A stretch of 64,000 nt of DNA from contig OZ241858.1 of NCBI GenBank assembly GCA_965203035.1, positions 2,201,437 to 2,265,436 on the forward strand. The letters run 5' to 3'. The DNA is from Candidatus Spongiisocius sp. (lineage in GTDB: Bacteria > Actinomycetota > Acidimicrobiia > Spongiisociales > Spongiisociaceae). This document shows positions 7,583 to 59,593 of this stretch, piece after piece. Both the position numbers and the translations under genes were made by a program. How positions within the stretch are numbered: the first letter of the stretch is position 1; the number at the start of each line of letters is the position of its first letter. The notes under the pieces were generated by a model, which made no database searches, was not told where the DNA came from, and saw only the letters and a program-made list of their open reading frames with translations.

Positions 7583-8572
7583 GTGAATGCCCTTACCCAC
7601 CTCAAGGGTCCCTCCAGACCCGGTCCGGGCGACCGGAAAGTTCTGCTGGACCGGGCCGGTGAGCTGTTCGCCGGCGCCGAGATCGAGCCGACCGACATCA
7701 TCCGGATCGACGTGCCGGGCCGGGGCCAGTCGGTAGGGGGAGAGGGCCTGCTGAGGCCCGAGCTCGAACCGATCGTGCCCGCCCTGCAGTCGGGATCCCT
7801 GTTCGGCGGGCGTACGGGTGTCATGTTGATGGACGCTCAGCTACTCCAGTCCGATGAGGCTGCCGTCGTGACCGATCTACTCGCTCACCAGGCCGGTGGG
7901 ATCCCGCCGGTGGTGCTGGTCACGAGCGGAAAGCTCCCGTCCCCGCTCGCAGCCCATGTGAAGAGGAACGCCGAGGTGATAACGGTCCGCAAGCTGGCCG
8001 ACCGTGACGTCGCCCTGTGGGTGCGCGACGCCGCCCGCCGGCGCGGGTTACGCCTCGGTTCGGACGCCGCTCAGGCCCTTGTCCAGCGCTTCGGATCCGA
8101 CGTCGGGGCCATCGACCACGCTCTCGACCAACTGAGCATTTCCGGGGGGCCGGTAACCGAACAGGTCATCCTGGACCGCTTCCGCAACCGGCCGGACCAG
8201 CCCCTTTGGAAGCTGACCGACGCCCTCGGGAAGGGGGCCGCAGAGGAAGCCATCCGCCGGCTGCATGATCTCCTCACCCACGGGCACCCCCTCGTTCTTG
8301 TGGCGACCATCGAGAACGACCTCCGGAAAAGGGCGCTGGCCGCGGCCGCGCCGGATATCGCCACGTTCGCGGAGTGGATCGGCGGTAAGCCCGGCGCCTA
8401 CCCGACCCGGAAGGCATGGCAGGCAGGACGGGCCATGTCAAGGGAGGATCTGAACAGGGCCGTAGATGCTGTTCGCAGGGCCGATGCCACGCTGAAAGGT
8501 ATGCCGCCAGAGACCCACCTACCGACCTTGGAGCGCTTGGTGGCCGCCCTCTGCATCTGGTACCGCGGTTAG
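7583..8572 (+). CDS. holA: DNA polymerase III delta subunit
   Basis: Conserved position downstream of comEC. Length and overall similarity fit the HolA family. The stop codon TAG is the first unit of the heptamer array. Confidence 0.7.
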   Translation: MNALTHLKGPSRPGPGDRKVLLDRAGELFAGAEIEPTDIIRIDVPGRGQSVGGEGLLRPELEPIVPALQSGSLFGGRTGVMLMDAQLLQSDEAAVVTDLLAHQAGGIPPVVLVTSGKLPSPLAAHVKRNAEVITVRKLADRDVALWVRDAARRRGLRLGSDAAQALVQRFGSDVGAIDHALDQLSISGGPVTEQVILDRFRNRPDQPLWKLTDALGKGAAEEAIRRLHDLLTHGHPLVLVATIENDLRKRALAAAAPDIATFAEWIGGKPGAYPTRKAWQAGRAMSREDLNRAVDAVRRADATLKGMPPETHLPTLERLVAALCIWYRG

Positions 8573-8639
8573 TTGTTAGTTGTTAGTTGTTAGTTGTTAG
8601 TTGTTAGTTGTTCCGATGTAACTAACGACTACAAACTAG
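8570..8639. repeat. Heptamer hairpin element A: (TAGTTGT)x6 direct array (8570-8611), loop TCCGATGT, then three inverted degenerate copies (AACTAAC GACTACA AACTAG, 8621-8639).
   Basis: Read directly from the sequence. An AT-rich island at the convergent holA/rpsT junction. The stop codons of both genes lie inside the element. Confidence 0.9.
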
Positions 8640-8889
8640 AAACGAGACGGGCCAGGCGCGCCTTCCGGCGGTTGGCGGTGTTCTTCTTGAGCACACCTTT
8701 CGCCACAGCCTGATCGATACGCTTCTGGGCGCTTCGCAAGGCCTGCTCGGTTGCCTCACGGTCACCGCTCTCGGCGGCTTCCTCCACCTGGCGCGCCCGG
8801 GTCTTCAGCTCCGAACGGATCGACCTGTTGCGGACCCTGCTGGCAATGGCCTGCCTGTCGCGCTTTTCCTGGGACTTGGTGTGTGGCAT
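8629..8889 (-). CDS. rpsT: 30S ribosomal protein S20
   Basis: MPHTKSQEKRDRQAIASRVRNRS...KNTANRRKARLARLVSSL, about 86 aa and S20-like. The start is the internal Met at 8889; the ORF-track N-extension is rejected. Confidence 0.9.
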   Translation of the reverse strand: MPHTKSQEKRDRQAIASRVRNRSIRSELKTRARQVEEAAESGDREATEQALRSAQKRIDQAVAKGVLKKNTANRRKARLARLVSSL

Positions 8890-9064
8890 CTTGTGACCCG
8901 CCGTGTTCGAGTTGCTTGCCGGATAGGCTCGAACCTGTCGAGCGGCACCAGGGGTGAGCGTGCGGACCGTGAGGCTAGCAGGCGCGGCCGACCGGTCCAA
9001 CGTAAACCACCCTTCGCATCGTCACCCCTGGTAGCGCCGGTGGGTACGGGTATCATGTCCGGCC

Positions 9065-10072
9065 ATGTTGGACGGTCGAAGGGCGCGGATCCTGCGCATC
9101 ATGATCGAGGAGCACATCCGCACGGGTGAGCCGGTGAGTTCCCGCGCCATTCTCGAGTCCGGCAACCTGGCGGTTTCCAGCGCCACGATCCGGACCGAGT
9201 TGGTGGCACTGGAGGCTGCCGGCTACGCCTTCCAGCCTCACACCTCCGCCGGGCGGATACCGACGCCGCAGGCCTATCGCTACTACGTGGACAGCCTGAT
9301 GCGTCCCCGGGAGACGCCGGTCGCCTCCGCCAGAGTGGCCGAGTTCTTCGCATCGGTCCAGACGGAGTTGGGCCGCCTGCTCAAGGCCACGTCCGCCCTG
9401 CTCAGCGAGATCACCCACTTCCCGTCGGTGGTGACCAGCCCCAGCATTGCAAGCGAGGTCATCCGGGCGGTGCATCTGGTTCGGACCACGGTCAATACGG
9501 TCCTCATGGTGGTGGTGACGGTCGCCGGACGCGTATCCCAGACGCTCCTGCATCTGCCGGTGCCGGTGGATAGCGCCGACGTGCAGGAGGCCGAGAGGCT
9601 GATCCGGCGCTTCCAGGTGGGCGCTTCGATGGCCGAGAGCCTCGATCTGGAGGCGATGTCCCTGGCCAACCCGACCGAACGGGTGGCATCCGTTCTCCGG
9701 CAGGCGGCGGCGGCATTCGAGAACACCGGAGCAGCGGACCACGAGTTGTACATGGGTCCGGCGTCCTACCTGACGGCTGCCTGGGGGGAACTGTCCAAGG
9801 TTCAAGGCGTCCTCGACGTCCTGGAGCGCGAGGCGGCACTGCTCGAGGTACTGGGTCACCTTCCGGCCGGCACGGAAGTGCGGATCGGCTCCGAACTGGG
9901 CATCGACTCCGCCACGGACATCTCCCTGGTGACCACCACTTACGGCGAGGAGTCGGCGGGTCCCGCCGGTCGGCTCGGAGTGCTGGGACCGATGCGTATG
10001 GACTACGGCCGGACCATCCGGGTACTCGAGGAGATCGGCGACGGCCTCGACGAGAGCCTCGGCGAGTCCTAG
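9065..10072 (+). CDS. hrcA: Heat-inducible transcription repressor HrcA
   Basis: HrcA-family N-terminal winged-helix (RRARILRIMIEEHIRTGEPVSSRAI) and overall length. Immediately followed by dnaJ. Confidence 0.9.
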   Translation: MLDGRRARILRIMIEEHIRTGEPVSSRAILESGNLAVSSATIRTELVALEAAGYAFQPHTSAGRIPTPQAYRYYVDSLMRPRETPVASARVAEFFASVQTELGRLLKATSALLSEITHFPSVVTSPSIASEVIRAVHLVRTTVNTVLMVVVTVAGRVSQTLLHLPVPVDSADVQEAERLIRRFQVGASMAESLDLEAMSLANPTERVASVLRQAAAAFENTGAADHELYMGPASYLTAAWGELSKVQGVLDVLEREAALLEVLGHLPAGTEVRIGSELGIDSATDISLVTTTYGEESAGPAGRLGVLGPMRMDYGRTIRVLEEIGDGLDESLGES

Positions 10073-19009: not shown

Positions 19010-19017
19010 TTTCAACG

Positions 19018-19179
19018 TGGTTGGTCTGTGTTTCGGCGGCGTGCTCTGAACCGCCATCGACGCCTCTGGCTGCGTCCTGCCTCCTCAACGTACCCTGCGG
19101 GTACGCCTTCGTCAGCAAATCCTTGCCATAGACGCCGCTGCCGGCGCCAGACCCCACCGCCGCGCCACAGACCAACCAC
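19018..19179. repeat. 162-bp element bounded by perfect 14-bp inverted repeats (GTGGTTGGTCTGTG ... CACAGACCAACCAC), with several internal short hairpins
   Basis: Read directly from the sequence. Located in the convergent aspA/sufU intergenic region. Confidence 0.6.
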
Positions 19180-19224
19180 GGGACGCGCGATTGCTGACGA
19201 CTGCGCATAACGTGAACACGGCCA

Positions 19225-19273
19225 AGTTGCTAGTTGTTCCATTGGCTAGAAACTATTGACTATCAACTACCAA
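19225..19273. repeat. Heptamer hairpin element B: AGTTGCT AGTTGTT, loop CCATTGG, then four inverted degenerate copies (CTAGAAA CTATTGA CTATCAA CTACCAA).
   Basis: Same architecture and loop context as element A (TAGTTGTTCC...CTAGAAAC). The sufU stop codon is embedded. Confidence 0.8.
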
Positions 19274-19724
19274 CAAAGTTGTTAATGGCCTGTTCCAGGG
19301 TAGTCCAGGGCAGGTTGGCGCACTTGATCCGGACCGGGAACTTACGGACTCCCTGAAGTGCCTCGAGATCACCGAGTACCGCACCGGGCCGGCTCGGATC
19401 GAGCCCGGGGTCTCCGGCGCCGTCGATGCTCATCATCCCCTTGAACCGGCCGGTGACTGTTCGTATCGTCTCGATGCTCCTGCCCTTCACGGCGTCGCCC
19501 ATCATCGAACCCGATGCCTGGGATATCGAACACCCGTGACCGGTGACCCCGATCGCGGTGACGTGGTCCCCCTCGATCAGCAATTCGACCCGGACCTCGT
19601 CACCACACAGCGGATTGTTGCCGTCGGCTACCGCGTTGGCCCGCGCCAGGGCCTTCCGGTTACGGGGGCTCCGGTAGTGGTCGAGGATTACCTCACGGTA
19701 GAGATCTTCAAGCGCCATGAGCAT
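19263..19724 (-). CDS. sufU: SUF-system Fe-S cluster scaffold SufU/IscU-family protein
   Basis: Conserved Cys motifs (NPLCGDEV, GHGCSIS). Confidence 0.85.
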   Translation of the reverse strand: MLMALEDLYREVILDHYRSPRNRKALARANAVADGNNPLCGDEVRVELLIEGDHVTAIGVTGHGCSISQASGSMMGDAVKGRSIETIRTVTGRFKGMMSIDGAGDPGLDPSRPGAVLGDLEALQGVRKFPVRIKCANLPWTTLEQAINNFVGS

Positions 19725-25071: not shown

Positions 25072-25290
25072 GTGGCCACCGGGACATCCTCGCGCCTATC
25101 CAGATTCGAGAAGAGCCGCTTTATCGGCGCCAGGGACACGATGATCGTCTACGACTGCGACGATGCCGGCCAGTTCGCCCGGCTCGAGGCCCGGCTCGGG
25201 GACGACAACCTGCTGGGTCGCAACCTGATCCAGAGCTTCGCCCCCGACACGCTGGCCGAGGCCCGCAACCGGGGATTTCGTAGTTTGTAG
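25072..25290 (+). CDS. Hypothetical small protein (72 aa, GTG start). Its C-terminal RSL* is encoded by the heptamer array.
   Basis: The ORF directly follows the upstream stop. No recognisable motifs. Confidence 0.3.
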   Translation: MATGTSSRLSRFEKSRFIGARDTMIVYDCDDAGQFARLEARLGDDNLLGRNLIQSFAPDTLAEARNRGFRSL

Positions 25291-25359
25291 TTGCTGGTTT
25301 CCAGTTGGTAGTGGCTACCTGTGCCTAACAACTGACAACTCCCAACTAACAACTAAAGA
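25281..25359. repeat. Heptamer hairpin element C: left array TAGTTTG TAGTTGC TGGTTTC CAGTTGG TAGTGGC, loop TACCTGTGC, right inverted array CTAACAA CTGACAA CTCCCAA CTAACAA CTAAAGA.
   Basis: Read directly from the sequence. Stop codons of the convergent ORFs on both strands lie inside the arrays. Confidence 0.85.
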
Positions 25360-33039: not shown

Positions 33040-33510
33040 GGTAACCGCCCTCTAACGCTGGCGCGTCAGGGGCGAAGCGCTGGGATCGAATGTAACACGA
33101 GTCAAGGTCCAGAGACAAGGAGCAGGTTGAGTCACCAGTCTGGGGGACGTCGATACGGTCCTACCGTCTCCGGGAGTTGACATGAGCGGAAATCGTCTTC
33201 CGTGAGCCGGTACCACCAATGGTTGCCGACACCCTCATCCGGATCTCCCTGTAGATCCCCAGCTGTCGGGTTACGGCGCGGGTGCCGGTCGGACGGGAAC
33301 CACGCACGAAATGCTGAATCCGACACTTTCGGAACCGTTCGCACTACGTTTTCGGAATCATTTGCCACTACGTTTCCGGAGTCTGCCCTCTCCGGCAAGG
33401 CAACTGTGGACCGTGGCCGGACATGTCTGGAGGTGCGCTGTTCCGGATCTCCTGCGACCGTGCGAAGATAGGTCCGCGTTGAACGGTCCAGCCAACCCAG
33501 GTGTGGAGAT

Positions 33511-34263
33511 ATGGATCCAGCCGGATATCTGAGCGCCCTGGTCTTCGGGGCACTTTCCTTCGTGTCGCCCTGCGTCCTGCCCCTGTTGCCCGGATACCTG
33601 GGGCTCATGTCCGGCTACTCGGTGGCTGACCTGCAGCAGGGGAAGGCCTCCACCGCCCGGATGCTCCGGGTCACCGTGATGTTCGTGGTCGGGCTGACGA
33701 TCGTGTTCGTGGCCCTAGGAGCGGGGGCAACCTCGGTGGCCGGCCTGCTCGCCCGCAACAAGGGAGCCATCACCACGGTGGCGGGCTGGATGATCGCCGT
33801 GTTCGGGCTGGTCATCGTGCTGATGGCGCTCAGCACGTCGCCCCGCCTGGCCTTCCTCTACCGGGAGCGCCGGCTCCACTTGCGCCCTTCGCAGTTGGGG
33901 GGTTGGGCGCCGCTGTTGATGGGCATGGCATTCGGTTTCGGCTGGACCCCGTGCATCGGGCCGGTGCTGGCGGCCATCCTCACACAGGCCGCCACCCAGG
34001 AGACGGTCGGCCGGGGGATGCTCCTGCTGTTCGTCTTCTCGATGGGTATGGGCCTTCCGTTCATCGCCGCCGGGATCGGGGTGACCAAGCTCTACTCGGG
34101 GATCAAGCTCCTCCAGCGCCACCTGCGGACCATCAACGTCCTGTCGGGCCTCCTGATGATGGTCTTCGGCTGGCTGTTCATCACAGGCCGTATCACGGAC
34201 CTGTCGAGCCTGGTGAGTGAGTGGATGATCCGGCTCGGCCTCGAGGGTCTGGCCTCAATCTGA
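33511..34263 (+). CDS. ccdA: Cytochrome c biogenesis protein CcdA (DsbD-family thiol-disulfide transporter)
   Basis: Conserved Cys pair in TM1 (FVSPCVLPLLPGY) and the 6-TM DsbD-core topology. Confidence 0.85.
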   Translation: MDPAGYLSALVFGALSFVSPCVLPLLPGYLGLMSGYSVADLQQGKASTARMLRVTVMFVVGLTIVFVALGAGATSVAGLLARNKGAITTVAGWMIAVFGLVIVLMALSTSPRLAFLYRERRLHLRPSQLGGWAPLLMGMAFGFGWTPCIGPVLAAILTQAATQETVGRGMLLLFVFSMGMGLPFIAAGIGVTKLYSGIKLLQRHLRTINVLSGLLMMVFGWLFITGRITDLSSLVSEWMIRLGLEGLASI

Positions 34264-45432: not shown

Positions 45433-47238
45433 TTAACCGGCGCCCCTCGCGCGCGTGCCGGGCATCCGCATGACCGACACGAAGGCCTCCGGCGGTATCT
45501 CAACCCGTCCGATCGCCTTCATGCGCCGCTTGCCCGCCTTCTGCTTCGCCAGCAGCTTGCGCTTCCGGGTGACATCTCCGCCGTAGAGCTTGGCGGTCAC
45601 GTCCTTGCGGAAGGCCTTGACCGTCTCGCGGGCGATGATCCGGCCTCCGATCGCCGCCTGGATGGGGACGTCGTACTGCTGGCGCGGGATCAGTTCCATG
45701 AGCTTCTCGGTCATCTGCCGTCCGTAGGGATAGGAAGAATCCCGGTGGACGATCGCGCTGAAGGCGTCTACCGGCTCGTGATGCAGCAGGATGTCCACCT
45801 TCACCAGATCGGCATCCTCGTAGTGTCCGGCGTCGTAGTCCAGGCTGGCATATCCCTGTGTCCGGCTCTTGAGCTGGTCGTAGAAGTCTGTTACCACCTC
45901 GGCCAGCGGCAGGTGGTAACGGAGTTCCACCCGTTCGGGAGACAGGTACTCCATGCCCTTGATGCGTCCCCGGCGGCCCTGGCAGAGATCCATCAGACGG
46001 CCGGTGTAGCGGGCCGGGCTGATGATGCTCGCCGCCAGGATCGGCTCGGCGATGGACAGCACCTCGCCGGCCGGAGGCATCTTGGCGGGGCTGTCAACGG
46101 GAACTTCCTCCCCGGCCGTCGTCCGCACCCGATACTCCACCGACGGCTTGGTGGCGATGATGTCCAGGGCGAACTCGCGCTCGAGGCGCTGGGTGATGAT
46201 CTCCATGTGCAAGAGGCCGAGGAAGCCACACCGGTAGCCGAACCCGAGTGCGGTGGAGGTCTCCGGCTCGTAGCTGAAGCTGGAGTCGTTGAGGCGTAGC
46301 CGGTCTAGGGCGTCTCGTAGTTCGGGATACTCGTCCCCGTCCAGGGGATAGAGGCCGCAGAACACCATGGGTTTGGGCTCGCGATAGCCCGGTAGGGGGG
46401 TGGAGGCTGGATGGGCGGCGTCGGTGACGGTCTCGCCGGGACGGGCCTCCGCCGTGTTCTTGACCCCGGATATGAGGTATCCCACCTCTCCGGGGCCCAG
46501 CTGCTCCACGGGAACGGCGGACGGCGTGCGCACCCCGATCTCCTGGAGGTTGTACATGGCGCCGGTCTGCATGAAACGCACCCGCGAGCCGGCGCGCAGC
46601 CTACCCCGCACGATCCGGATCGAGCTGATGACCCCCCGGTAGCTGTCGAAATGGGAATCGAACACCAGGGCCGCCAGCTCCGCATCCTCATCGCCGTCCG
46701 GCGGCGGTACGCGCCGGCAGACCGCGTCGAGGAGCCCGGCAACTCCCTCGCCGGTCTTGGCCGACACCCGCAGCACCTCTTCGGCCGCTATTCCCAGGAC
46801 CTGCTCGATCTCCTCGGCCACCCGGTCGGGATCGGCGGCGGGAAGATCGACCTTGTTGAGAACCGGTACCACGGTCAGATCGTGTTCCAGCGCCAGCGCG
46901 CAGTTGGCCAGGGTCTGCGCCTCGATGCCCTGCGAGGCGTCGACCAGCAGGATCACCCCCTCGCACGCCGCCAGGGACCGCGATACCTCGTACCCGAAGT
47001 CGACGTGGCCCGGCGTGTCGATCAGATTGATCCTCCACGGCCCGTACTCCAGGCTGACGCTCTGGAGCTTGATGGTGATACCGCGCTCCCGCTCGAGATC
47101 CATATTGTCGAGGTACTGGGCTCGCATCCGGCGTGCGTCCACAGCCCCGCACAACTCCAGGAATCGATCCGCGAGCGTCGACTTGCCGTGGTCGATATGA
47201 GCAATAATGGCTACGTTGCGTATGCGAGATTGATCCAT
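45433..47238 (-). CDS. lepA: Elongation factor 4
   Basis: GTPase motifs ([21 protein letters not shown]) and the LepA C-terminal domain. Confidence 0.95.
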
Positions 47239-47368
47239 GCCTGGGGAGGGGGGTCGAAAACCGAATCCTGGGAGGCTCGCCGGTCGGGCAAACCACGGTC
47301 CTAGACGCAGGCTAGCCAGCGAACCGCACGTTCCGGCTTCGAGTGACCCCCGGGTAAGATCATCTCCA

Positions 47369-47452
47369 GCCGGGATGGCGGAATTGGTAGACGCGCCGGA
47401 CTCAAAATCCGGTGCCCCTTGGGGCGTATGGGTTCGAGTCCCATTCCCGGTA
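47369..47452 (+). tRNA. tRNA-Leu (anticodon CAA), type II with long variable arm
   Basis: GCCGGGATGGCGGAATTGGTAGACGCGCCGGACTCAAAATCCGG...GGGTTCGAGTCCCATTCCCGGTA. Confidence 0.85.
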
Positions 47453-47456
47453 CGGG

Positions 47457-47610
47457 CAGTGGCCAGTGGCCGGTTGCCAGTGGCCAGAGGCGACTTGGTC
47501 TAATCAATTCCCTTGTGCCCTTTCCTCTGTTCGATGGCATGTGTCATTCCCTTCCTGGGTTACAACATCACTGACCACTGACCACTGACCACTGACCACT
47601 GACCACTGCC
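47457..47610. repeat. Heptamer element D: left array (CAGTGGC)x5 with two degenerate units (47457-47491), a 77-nt AT-richer spacer, and right inverted array (CACTGAC)x5 plus CACTGCC (47569-47610). It ends 16 nt before the polA ATG.
   Basis: Read directly from the sequence. The reverse complement of the right array is (CAGTGGT)n, so the two arrays are mutually inverted. Confidence 0.9.
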
Positions 47611-47626
47611 ACGCTACGATCATCGC

Positions 47627-50284
<2,658 letters not shown>

Positions 50285-58841: not shown

Positions 58842-58869
58842 AACTTAGTCTATGAACTTAGTCTATAGT
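58842..58869 (+). promoter_or_regulatory. Two 12-bp direct repeats (AACTTAGTCTAT, spacer of 1 nt) overlapping a TATAGT -10-like hexamer upstream of the TA operon. Candidate autoregulatory operator.
   Basis: Read directly from the sequence. A GAGGAG SD lies 8 nt before the ATG at 58895. Confidence 0.4.
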
Positions 58870-58894
58870 GAGCCATGTGAGAGGAGCAGTTCGT

Positions 58895-59131
58895 ATGGCC
58901 GTGACCGTGAACGTACATCAGGCCAAGACGCACCTGTCGAGGTTGCTGGATCGCGCCCACGCCGGAGAGGAGATCATCCTCGCCAAGGCGGGCAAGCCCT
59001 ATGCCGTGCTCGGACCCCTTCCTCCATCCGATGTGGGCCGCCGCCCCGGCCGGCTGGCCGATCAGACTGTCGGCCCGGAGATACTCCTGCCCCTTCCGTC
59101 CGCCGAACTCGATGCCTGGGAAGGGAGATGA
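58895..59131 (+). CDS. Type II antitoxin (VapB/Phd-YefM-like small DNA-binding protein)
   Basis: MAVTVNVHQAKTHLSRLLDRAHAGEEIILAKAGKPYAVL. Stop overlaps the toxin start (ATGA). Confidence 0.7.
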   Translation: MAVTVNVHQAKTHLSRLLDRAHAGEEIILAKAGKPYAVLGPLPPSDVGRRPGRLADQTVGPEILLPLPSAELDAWEGR

Positions 59132-59517
59132 TGCGGCTATTGCTAGACACGCATACCTTGTTGTGGTGGTGGACCAACAACCCCAACCTCTCGGCCCTCG
59201 CCCGGAATTCCATTGCTGACGGGACATCCGAGGTATTCGTCAGCGCGGCGAGCGCTTGGGAAATCGCTACTTTAAGACGGCTAGGACGCCTGGATCGCGC
59301 TCCCGACGCCACCGGCCGCTTCCATGAGTTGGTTGCGGCAGATGAGTTCCGTCACCTGGCAATCACCTACAGACACTGTCTCCGTGCCGGCGCCTATACG
59401 GCAGAGCATCGCGATCCCTTCGACCGGATGCTGGCCGCCCAGAGCGAGATGGAGTCACTCACCCTGGTGACCAAGGATCTCGCGTTCGGGCAATTCGAAA
59501 CCACGGTTATCTGGTAA
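59128..59517 (+). CDS. vapC: PIN-domain ribonuclease toxin (VapC family)
   Basis: N-terminal LLDTHTLLWWW with the acidic PIN residues, and the size (129 aa). Paired with the upstream antitoxin. Confidence 0.75.
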   Translation: MMRLLLDTHTLLWWWTNNPNLSALARNSIADGTSEVFVSAASAWEIATLRRLGRLDRAPDATGRFHELVAADEFRHLAITYRHCLRAGAYTAEHRDPFDRMLAAQSEMESLTLVTKDLAFGQFETTVIW

Positions 59518-59593
59518 GACAGGCGGTGACCTCCGCCGTGGCAACAGCCGCGAATTACCTCACCGGGACCGCCGCTGATGGGAGTGGATAGCC

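Follow-up and report, generated by a model that had tools for sequence, protein, structure and literature searches.

A heptanucleotide-repeat hairpin containing both stop codons at the convergent holA/rpsT junction of Candidatus Spongiisocius, and a dispersed family of probable 3′-end elements to which it belongs

In the genome of Candidatus Spongiisocius the convergently transcribed genes holA and rpsT end within a hairpin that is built from 7-nt tandem repeats and that belongs to a wider family of such elements in the sponge-associated Ca. Spongiisociaceae. The reading that we favour, with a probability of roughly 0.6, is that these arrays grow by replication slippage, that their two arms are kept complementary and that the resulting hairpin serves as an RNA 3′-end structure for both transcripts. 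Throughout, the window is the whole stretch of DNA that was analysed, 64,000 nt in length, and the hairpin at the holA/rpsT junction is called element A. The junction and its flanking genes are laid out as follows.

7583-8572, plus strand: holA (DNA polymerase III delta), an ORF of 329 aa (TIGR01128, 99.2 bits against a cut-off of 80)
8570-8611, plus strand: left arm of element A, six perfect TAGTTGT units, a copy-number-variable simple sequence repeat (SSR; from sequence, TRF and alleles)
8612-8619, no strand assigned: loop of element A, TCCGATGT (from sequence), with surroundings identical in all same-species contigs
8620-8639, minus strand: right arm of element A, the degenerate inverted units AACTAAC GACTACA AACTAG (from sequence)
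8629-8889, minus strand: rpsT (ribosomal protein S20; TIGR00029, 84 bits)

Read on the plus strand, the junction runs TAC CGC GGT TAG TTGT (TAGTTGT)x5 TCCGATGT AACTAAC GACTACA AACTAG AAACGAG. TRF resolves the left array as period 7 with 6.4 copies at 100% matches (score 90), and its first heptamer unit supplies the holA stop TAG (8570-8572). The right arm reads TAGTTTG TAGTCGT TAGTT on the minus strand. Embedded in these inverted copies is the rpsT stop (8629-8631), the 3′ end of the gene being AGT-AGT-TTG-TAG, or S-S-L-stop, such that the protein ends in ...V-S-S-L-stop. A first-pass annotation of this DNA had described six perfect units, a short loop and three degenerate inverted copies carrying both stop codons. 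The sequence and TRF bear out the repeat structure, and the ORFs with their TIGR01128 and TIGR00029 matches bear out the position of the stops. The same annotation placed the element in a genome of 68% GC; the value measured for the window is 66.8%, and the AT-rich character of the element stands, as the 56-nt gap between holA and rpsT has a GC content of 32%.

The hairpin that had been proposed is recovered in predicted RNA folds of both strands, with energies of -21.5 to -23.9 kcal/mol when read in the direction of holA and -13.4 to -15.7 kcal/mol in that of rpsT. The z-scores of the fold against shuffled sequences are modest (approximately -1.4 to -3.8), and the AT-rich stem is weaker than the GC-rich hairpins of other junctions. 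No U-tract occurs at element A on either strand and a consensus terminator scan of positions 8300-9100 returned 0 terminator-like sites. Therefore, element A is not a canonical intrinsic terminator, and its earlier description as bidirectional and terminator-like can be called plausible only if taken loosely. Likewise, consensus promoter and terminator scans around element A and around the related elements C and D (described below) gave no matches, and an Rfam covariance-model scan of the 64-kb window at gathering score reported two tRNAs only and no repeat element. In (TAGTTGT)n, as in its complement (ACAACTA)n, none of the three frames stays open beyond 7 codons.

Five elements of this kind, A to E, were found in the 64-kb window, with C and D forming an inverted pair. 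Elements A to D exist as the first-pass annotation described them, although its count of four fell short, having missed element E. The four further elements are the following.

19224-19274, no strand assigned: element E, units AAGTTGC TAGTTGT, a loop, then TAGAAAC TATTGAC TATCAAC TACCAAC, at the convergent fumC/sufU junction
25281-25356, no strand assigned: element B, units TAGTTTG TAGTTGC TGGTTTC CAGTTGG TAGTGGC, a loop, then four to five inverted units (from sequence)
47457-47491, plus strand: element C, five CAGTGGC-type units, starting 4 nt after tRNA-Leu(CAA) (47369-47453)
47569-47610, plus strand: element D, (CACTGAC)x5 followed by CACTGCC, the inverse of C, ending 16 nt before the polA ATG (47627)

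Embedded stop codons recur among these elements. The sufU stop (19263-19265) lies within element E, and in L208 the first unit of that element provides the fumC stop TAG. Element B embeds two stops, one belonging to a 49/72-aa ORF on the plus strand (25288-25290) and the other to a 30-aa membrane-like ORF on the minus strand (25353-25355). Elements C and D are predicted to form a stem that encloses a 77-nt loop, at -66 kcal/mol (z = -3.3); the consensus terminator scan of this region (47200-47700) gave 0 terminator-like sites. In element C, all six frames of (CAGTGGC)n are free of stops. Termination in all frames, which had been proposed as a property of the array, thus applies to element A and not to the family, and we regard it as a by-product of units seeded by TAG or TGA. 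As a separate observation, a MITE-like element with terminal inverted repeats, distinct from the heptamer hairpins, inserts into them, making the arrays hot spots for a small mobile element.

The preference for a period of seven is marked. A period-7 autocorrelation scan of the window recovered four arrays with none at periods 5, 8 or 9, and a scan for YAGT at every seventh nucleotide found 4-6 sites compared to 0.02-0.28 in Markov shuffles. Arrays of period 7 were found in the window and in four relatives (L009, L011, L017 and L021), all of them sequences in which periods 5, 6, 8 and 9 are scarce or absent. Across the window and L008-L026 (443 kb) they occupy 8 of 58 convergent junctions versus 4 of 281 other junctions (odds ratio 11, p = 1.3e-4), counts that are approximate because the genes of the relatives were called with our own GC3-based caller. 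This agrees with the earlier suggestion of a dispersed family tied to the 3′ ends of genes. The arrays start between -9 and +2 nt from the upstream stop. Moreover, at all eight independent junctions (8/8, p = 0.008) the G/T-rich, stop-bearing arm is the 5′ one on both strands. On the strand read 5′ to 3′ the consensus unit is YAGTKGN, with YAGT as the common core, and every array of the window has an inverted partner.

Element A is polymorphic within the species. The exact S20 protein was found on 12 metagenome contigs, of which six (L001-L006) were examined, and in all six the flanks of the element are identical to those of the window. On the holA side, four contigs (L001, L002, L003 and L006) have an array of 2 units and two (L004 and L005) one of 4, compared with 6 in the window. 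As the array begins at a stop codon, changes in unit number leave both ORFs intact; accordingly, the holA and rpsT ORFs are the same in the 2-, 4- and 6-unit alleles. Array D likewise varies, from 5 perfect units in the window to 4 in L087, whereas the degenerate element B is constant in length, showing no copy-number variation across the 7 contigs compared. Pure arrays that slip alongside a degenerate one that does not is classic SSR behaviour, as would be expected if slippage needs pure repeats. The right arm of element A carries a C/T SNP among strains (TAGTCGT versus TAGTTGT). Compared to L004, the second unit of the left arm in L005 has two adjacent substitutions (TAGTTGT to TAGTTTG), which exactly mirror the irregular CAAACTA of the opposite arm and yield a perfect 19-21-bp palindrome (-29.5 kcal/mol). 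This allele is the signature of either templated quasipalindrome correction or strong selection for pairing.

The orthologous junctions of relatives were located by an HrcA-anchored scan of reference genomes, which also assigns the window to the sponge-associated Acidimicrobiia, within Ca. Spongiisociaceae. Genus-level relatives (L008-L013; Ca. Spongiisociaceae, Acidimicrobiia) carry heptamer-built elements at the holA/rpsT junction, assembled from other units: TAGTCAC/GTGACTA in L008, TAGTTGC/GCGACTA in L009 and GTAGTTGTTAGTT/AACTAACAACTAC in L010. A clear hairpin is predicted at this junction in L008, L009, L010 and L013, while L011 and L012 fold weakly. The comparison with related genomes that had been suggested therefore shows a hairpin kept in four of these relatives from differing units. 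Predicted folds of the junction segments of L001-L009 range from -14 to -30 kcal/mol, and in the longer segments of L010 and L013 the same hairpin lies inside a larger predicted structure. Across 5 distinct sequences the 12-bp core of the stem keeps 100% pairing, three of its pairs having changed on both sides, a covariation record that comprises these five sequences only, all related to each other. L007, with 96% HolA identity, has no heptamers, and a GC-rich hairpin (GCCGGCC...GGCCGGC) is found at the junction. More distant members of the family mostly lack heptamers, L021 (CAGTGGT) and L017 being the exceptions.

The heptamer-bearing clade is also marked in its proteins. The S20 tail LVSSL/LVASL is specific to this clade and is coded by heptamer-like units, and TAG makes up approximately 40% of the clade's stop codons. 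Besides stop codons, the arrays provide C-terminal tails peculiar to the clade (S20 ...LVSSL). Furthermore, a single junction that has 2, 4 or 6 units, a perfect palindrome or a GC-rich hairpin in near-identical genomes from public metagenomes constitutes a natural experiment. Matching metatranscriptomes could therefore be used to test arm length and pairing against transcript 3′ ends. The arrays would also serve as VNTR strain markers for this uncultured sponge symbiont.

In the mechanism that we propose, two inverted arrays of 7-nt units occupy a convergent gap, each with its start on a stop codon or no more than a few bases from one. They gain and lose units through slipped-strand mispairing as the DNA is replicated, a step that the natural alleles demonstrate. 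Complementarity between the arms would be kept either by selection for pairing or by hairpin-templated (quasipalindrome) correction. The hairpin may then act on RNA as a barrier to 3′-to-5′ exonucleases, as a tail-less pause or termination hairpin, or as both, and would limit read-through into the opposing gene for the two convergent transcripts. The embedded stops and short coding tails would be a consequence of arrays seeded at, or growing into, gene ends. Judging from position, from the conservation of pairing and from the GC-rich replacement in L007, a transcript 3′-end structure is the most likely function of the hairpin. Nonetheless, pairing could persist through templated mutation at the DNA level, without selection on RNA.

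A more ambitious version, which we think distinctly improbable as a whole, would see a selected and self-renewing 3′-end system in which stop-seeded arrays grow by slippage and are re-matched by templated correction, with copy-number alleles that, at convergent junctions, tune read-through and mRNA stability. Such a system would be a transposase-free analogue of REP sequences that also supplies stops and C-terminal tails. If this were true, it would provide a function for the long-unexplained excess of heptanucleotide repeats in bacteria.

Foremost among the alternatives to a slippage-grown hairpin acting at RNA 3′ ends is a neutral microsatellite, an explanation that we consider rather unlikely yet better placed than any other rival. 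Here the arrays would be by-products of slippage, along the lines of the polymerase-footprint idea of Mrazek, that are tolerated only in harmless places such as short, promoter-free convergent gaps, and neither hairpin nor stops would have a function. That copy number varies freely among conspecifics, that the units at the same site differ between species and that L007 has no array at all would follow readily. Moreover, (TAGTTGN)3 occurs in at least 120 metagenome contigs spanning 22-68% GC, arrays of many unrelated units are common and no function for such repeats is found in the literature (PMC4692102). Viral contigs contain (TAGTTGT)3 44 times, compared to 13 and 107 for the same-composition controls (ATGTTGT)3 and (ATTGGTT)3; on these figures, from a database not ideal for such a test, we also rejected the YAGT-core heptamer as a special cross-phylum motif. 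However, neutrality accounts for the tolerance of arrays at convergent junctions and not for their paired arms. No array of the window is without its inverted counterpart, stems continue to pair by means of compensatory changes, the junction always holds some hairpin (GC-rich where heptamers are absent) and the orientation rule applies at 8/8 junctions. Among the (TAGTTGN)3 matches listed, an inverted partner lies downstream in 8 of 96 (~8%) and upstream in 3, with 3 of 330 control windows for comparison. Pairing is therefore not intrinsic to heptamer SSRs generally. Were the arrays neutral after all, they would represent an ordinary microsatellite family. Two further observations concern heptamer arrays elsewhere: many low-GC metagenome contigs with TAGTTGN/TAGTGGN arrays appear, as an impression only, to be cyanobacterial, and inverted heptamer arrays flanking intergenic spacers recur in Ruminococcus.

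We attach little credence to the possibility that the heptamers are reiterated DNA or RNA sites for a lineage-specific factor (a regulator, a nucleoid protein or an S1-, Csp- or CsrA-like protein), with element D exerting translational control of polA. The units do have the YAGT core in common, element D ends 16 nt before the polA start with no obvious Shine-Dalgarno sequence between, which parallels TAACTGA arrays (PMC4679880), and a heptamer-binding protein has been the subject of speculation for Nostoc (10.1101/2022.06.06.494920). Yet the units at orthologous sites differ (TAGTTGT, TAGTCAC, TAGTTGC, CAGTGGT), which argues against sequence-specific recognition. In addition, copy number is not conserved, most arrays lie at 3′ rather than 5′ ends and no candidate protein was identified.

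Still less probable, in our estimation, is that these are mobile palindromes of the REP/REPIN or MITE type spread by a transposase, as opposed to locally grown repeats. Their position and shape resemble REP sequences, which are extragenic palindromes at 3′ ends, and the heptamer hairpins are indeed targets for the insertion of a true MITE-like element bearing terminal inverted repeats. Against this, the 7-nt unit is the only sequence that the elements have in common, neither their length nor their ends are fixed, alleles at one fixed site are distinguished by entire units and the orthologous position is retained between species. Neither a target duplication nor a RAYT or other transposase was noticed in their vicinity. 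Several other ideas were considered but set aside: primase initiation triplets in arrays (CTA/CTG on the opposite strand), RNase E sites, rut sites in the G-free (ACAACUA)n tail, integron attC sites, uptake sequences and Chi-like sites (the L017 unit CACCAGC being the complement of GCTGGTG). Lastly, we reject the idea that the array is an assembly artefact of a low-complexity region, which the first-pass annotation had held out as a potential refutation, or else a phase-variation switch that changes the reading frame: short-read assemblers can collapse low-complexity arrays and SSRs are classic contingency loci, but a sequencing read exceeds the 42 nt of the array, at least 7 independent assemblies contain the element, with unit-step differences between flanks that are otherwise identical (six of them same-species contigs with 2 or 4 units), and an array that begins at a stop codon leaves both ORFs unchanged whatever its unit number.

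It had been claimed that the elements match no described repeat class. This does not hold, as heptanucleotide SSRs (PMC4679880, PMC4692102) and the Xanthomonas and Nostoc arrays have been described. According to the accounts of Mrazek's 2007 work given in two later papers (PMC4679880, PMC4692102), heptanucleotide SSRs are the most abundant and most over-represented class of long SSRs (LSSRs) in bacteria, polymerase slippage has been proposed as their cause, and Actinobacteria are among the richest genomes for the LSSR class (Mrazek, Guo & Shah 2007). Neither function nor mechanism has been established for bacterial heptamer repeats (PMC4692102, PMC4679880). The arrays described here resemble this class in being tandem 7-nt units that are intergenic, occur at multiple loci, favour period 7 and differ in copy number between close relatives: element A has 6.4 copies at 100%, elements A and D show unit-step polymorphism and there are 5 elements in 64 kb. 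They differ in that the class is a purely statistical one, whose description in those accounts does not include the hairpin pairing, stop embedding and convergent bias found here.

The closest parallel in arrangement comes from Xanthomonas, where 89-93% of GGGAATC arrays are intergenic and the arrays follow the preceding ORF at a mean distance of 28 nt (Rehm et al. 2015, PMC4692102). Of the 186 arrays, 70 belong to inverted pairs of convergent orientation that could fold into stem-loops; few arrays lie between divergent genes, and the site is kept while length and sequence differ between sister species (PMC4692102). Some of the Nostoc GGGGA(C/T)T arrays likewise form inverted repeats, and the G3-4 tracts of the Xanthomonas and Nostoc units form G-quadruplexes in vitro (Rehm et al. 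2015, PMC4692102). A separate Nostoc study speculates on regulation and on a heptamer-binding protein (10.1101/2022.06.06.494920). With the Xanthomonas arrays, those of Ca. Spongiisociaceae have in common a high-GC host, proximity to the end of the upstream ORF, frequent inverted pairing and retention of the site. In contrast to both systems, there is no GGG in TAGTTGT, CAGTGGC or CACTGAC, and the arrays overlap stops and last codons.

Cyanobacterial STRR heptamers (CCCCAGT, TTGGTCA and CAACAGT), reportedly described by Mazel and colleagues in 1990, are said to be dispersed tandem repeats in non-coding DNA. The likeness extends to a CAGT core, found also in elements C and D; however, the units, the phylum (the host here is an actinomycetote of the Acidimicrobiia) and the GC content are other ones, and STRRs are not, so far as is known, defined as 3′-end hairpins. 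TAACTGA repeats, known from marine Beggiatoaceae, Cyanobacteria and Bacteroidetes, lie mostly upstream of start codons and are almost all direct, with one indirect repeat in 170 sets (MacGregor 2015, PMC4679880). In Beggiatoaceae they have been proposed as reiterated binding sites (PMC4679880). They too embed stop triplets, their reverse complement CAGTTAT approaches YAGTKGN except at the sixth base, and element D similarly lies just upstream of a start codon. The TAACTGA unit itself is absent here, though, and the inverted pairs are mostly 3′ of genes, with only element D near a start codon.

The REP and BIME sequences of enterobacteria are imperfect palindromes at the 3′ ends of genes, often between convergent genes, where they stabilise upstream mRNA or terminate transcription. 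REP and BIME sequences, as well as the DUS/USS uptake sequences, have a fixed consensus, to which REP adds a RAYT transposase; none is assembled from tandem units or known to vary in unit steps. The elements of Ca. Spongiisociaceae are alike in being dispersed imperfect palindromes at gene 3′ ends, often at convergent junctions, but they are tandem-unit built, vary by unit steps and have no fixed consensus. Inverted pairs of DUS/USS uptake sequences occur in terminators, and tail-less 'I-shaped' hairpin terminators have been proposed for mycobacteria. Element A resembles an intrinsic terminator in placing a stem-loop directly after the stop, symmetrically between convergent genes, and departs from one in its missing U-tract, its AT-rich stem and its 0 matches in the consensus scan. 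Taken together, these comparisons place element A as a new lineage and a new set of units within the known class of heptanucleotide SSRs.

The six genus-level relatives (L008-L013) and the window form a heptamer-bearing clade, whose stop codons we compared with those of L027-L040. According to in-house gene calls, TAG accounts for 55 of the 137 stops (40%) in the clade. Other Spongiisociaceae use it for 25% of their stops, and other Acidimicrobiia for 15% (p = 8e-7). The higher TAG usage parallels the occurrence of heptamer arrays that are themselves initiated by TAG.

Moreover, heptamer hairpins are found next to a MITE-like element, recognised by its terminal inverted repeats (CGTGGTTGGTCTGTG / CACAGACCAACCACG):

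Window 19010-19223, MITE-like element at the fumC stop
L209 about 817-900, MITE-like element at the fumC stop
L013 about 205-320, related copy within the holA/rpsT junction

In the window, the fumC stop TAG belonging to heptamer hairpin E (19224-19274, at the convergent fumC/sufU junction) is followed immediately by the insertion. The element is about 215 nt here and about 77 nt in L209, where it is bordered by CTAG...CTAG; the fumC stop of L208 is without it. The copy in Ca. Spongiisocius variivorans (L013) adjoins the heptamer hairpin of its holA/rpsT junction. Taken together, these data suggest a small mobile element with heptamer hairpins or CTAG as its target.

Arrays C (47457-47491) and D (47569-47610) are mutually inverse and enclose a spacer, and a relative carries a long-loop hairpin:

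Window 47492-47568, spacer of 77 nt flanked by C and D in the tRNA-Leu/polA interval
L011 20041-20200, long-loop hairpin between convergent genes

A consensus scan found no sigma-70-like promoter in 47492-47568, and no obvious Shine-Dalgarno sequence was seen on inspection before the polA ATG. The L011 hairpin is a second case of the long-loop C/D type. Here a TGA stop is followed immediately by (TCAGTGG)x6, whose partner, a set of degenerate inverse units, lies about 70 nt downstream (predicted -86 kcal/mol).

Two further repeats were found in the window:

33327-33380, 24-nt tandem repeat TTTCGGAACCATTCGCCACTACGT (2.3 copies, 83% matches)
58842-58866, perfect 13-nt direct repeat (AACTTAGTCTATG x2)

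The intergenic region that holds the former is 573 nt long and precedes an ORF at 33511; the repeat is a possible operator or iteron-like site. The latter is located in a 59-nt AT-rich gap, its last base 1 nt ahead of an 87-aa ORF (58868-59131), downstream of which the in-house gene caller made no strong ORF call (59132-59593).

Lastly, arrays with other units were found in a relative and in Clostridia:

L017 2437-2551, hairpin with two different units at a convergent junction
L069 10996-11246 and 17922-18435, heptamer arrays

The arms of the L017 hairpin, (GGTGAAT)n versus (CACCAGC)n, are each internally homogeneous. In every unit only a core of 4-5 nt pairs, and the stem becomes a ladder-like series of short helices; GCTGGTG, the complement of the latter unit, resembles the core of E. 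coli Chi. Heptamer arrays are also present in MAGs of Ruminococcus and other Clostridia at 42-48% GC (L055-L058, L062, L064, L067-L070), with the units GGAGTGT/GGAGTTT, TAATTGT and GAATKCG. In L069 an array begins with the hrcA stop TAG. Its inverse copy follows after about 180 nt and directly precedes the Shine-Dalgarno sequence of the downstream gene; the pair encloses the entire intergenic spacer, as do C and D in the window.
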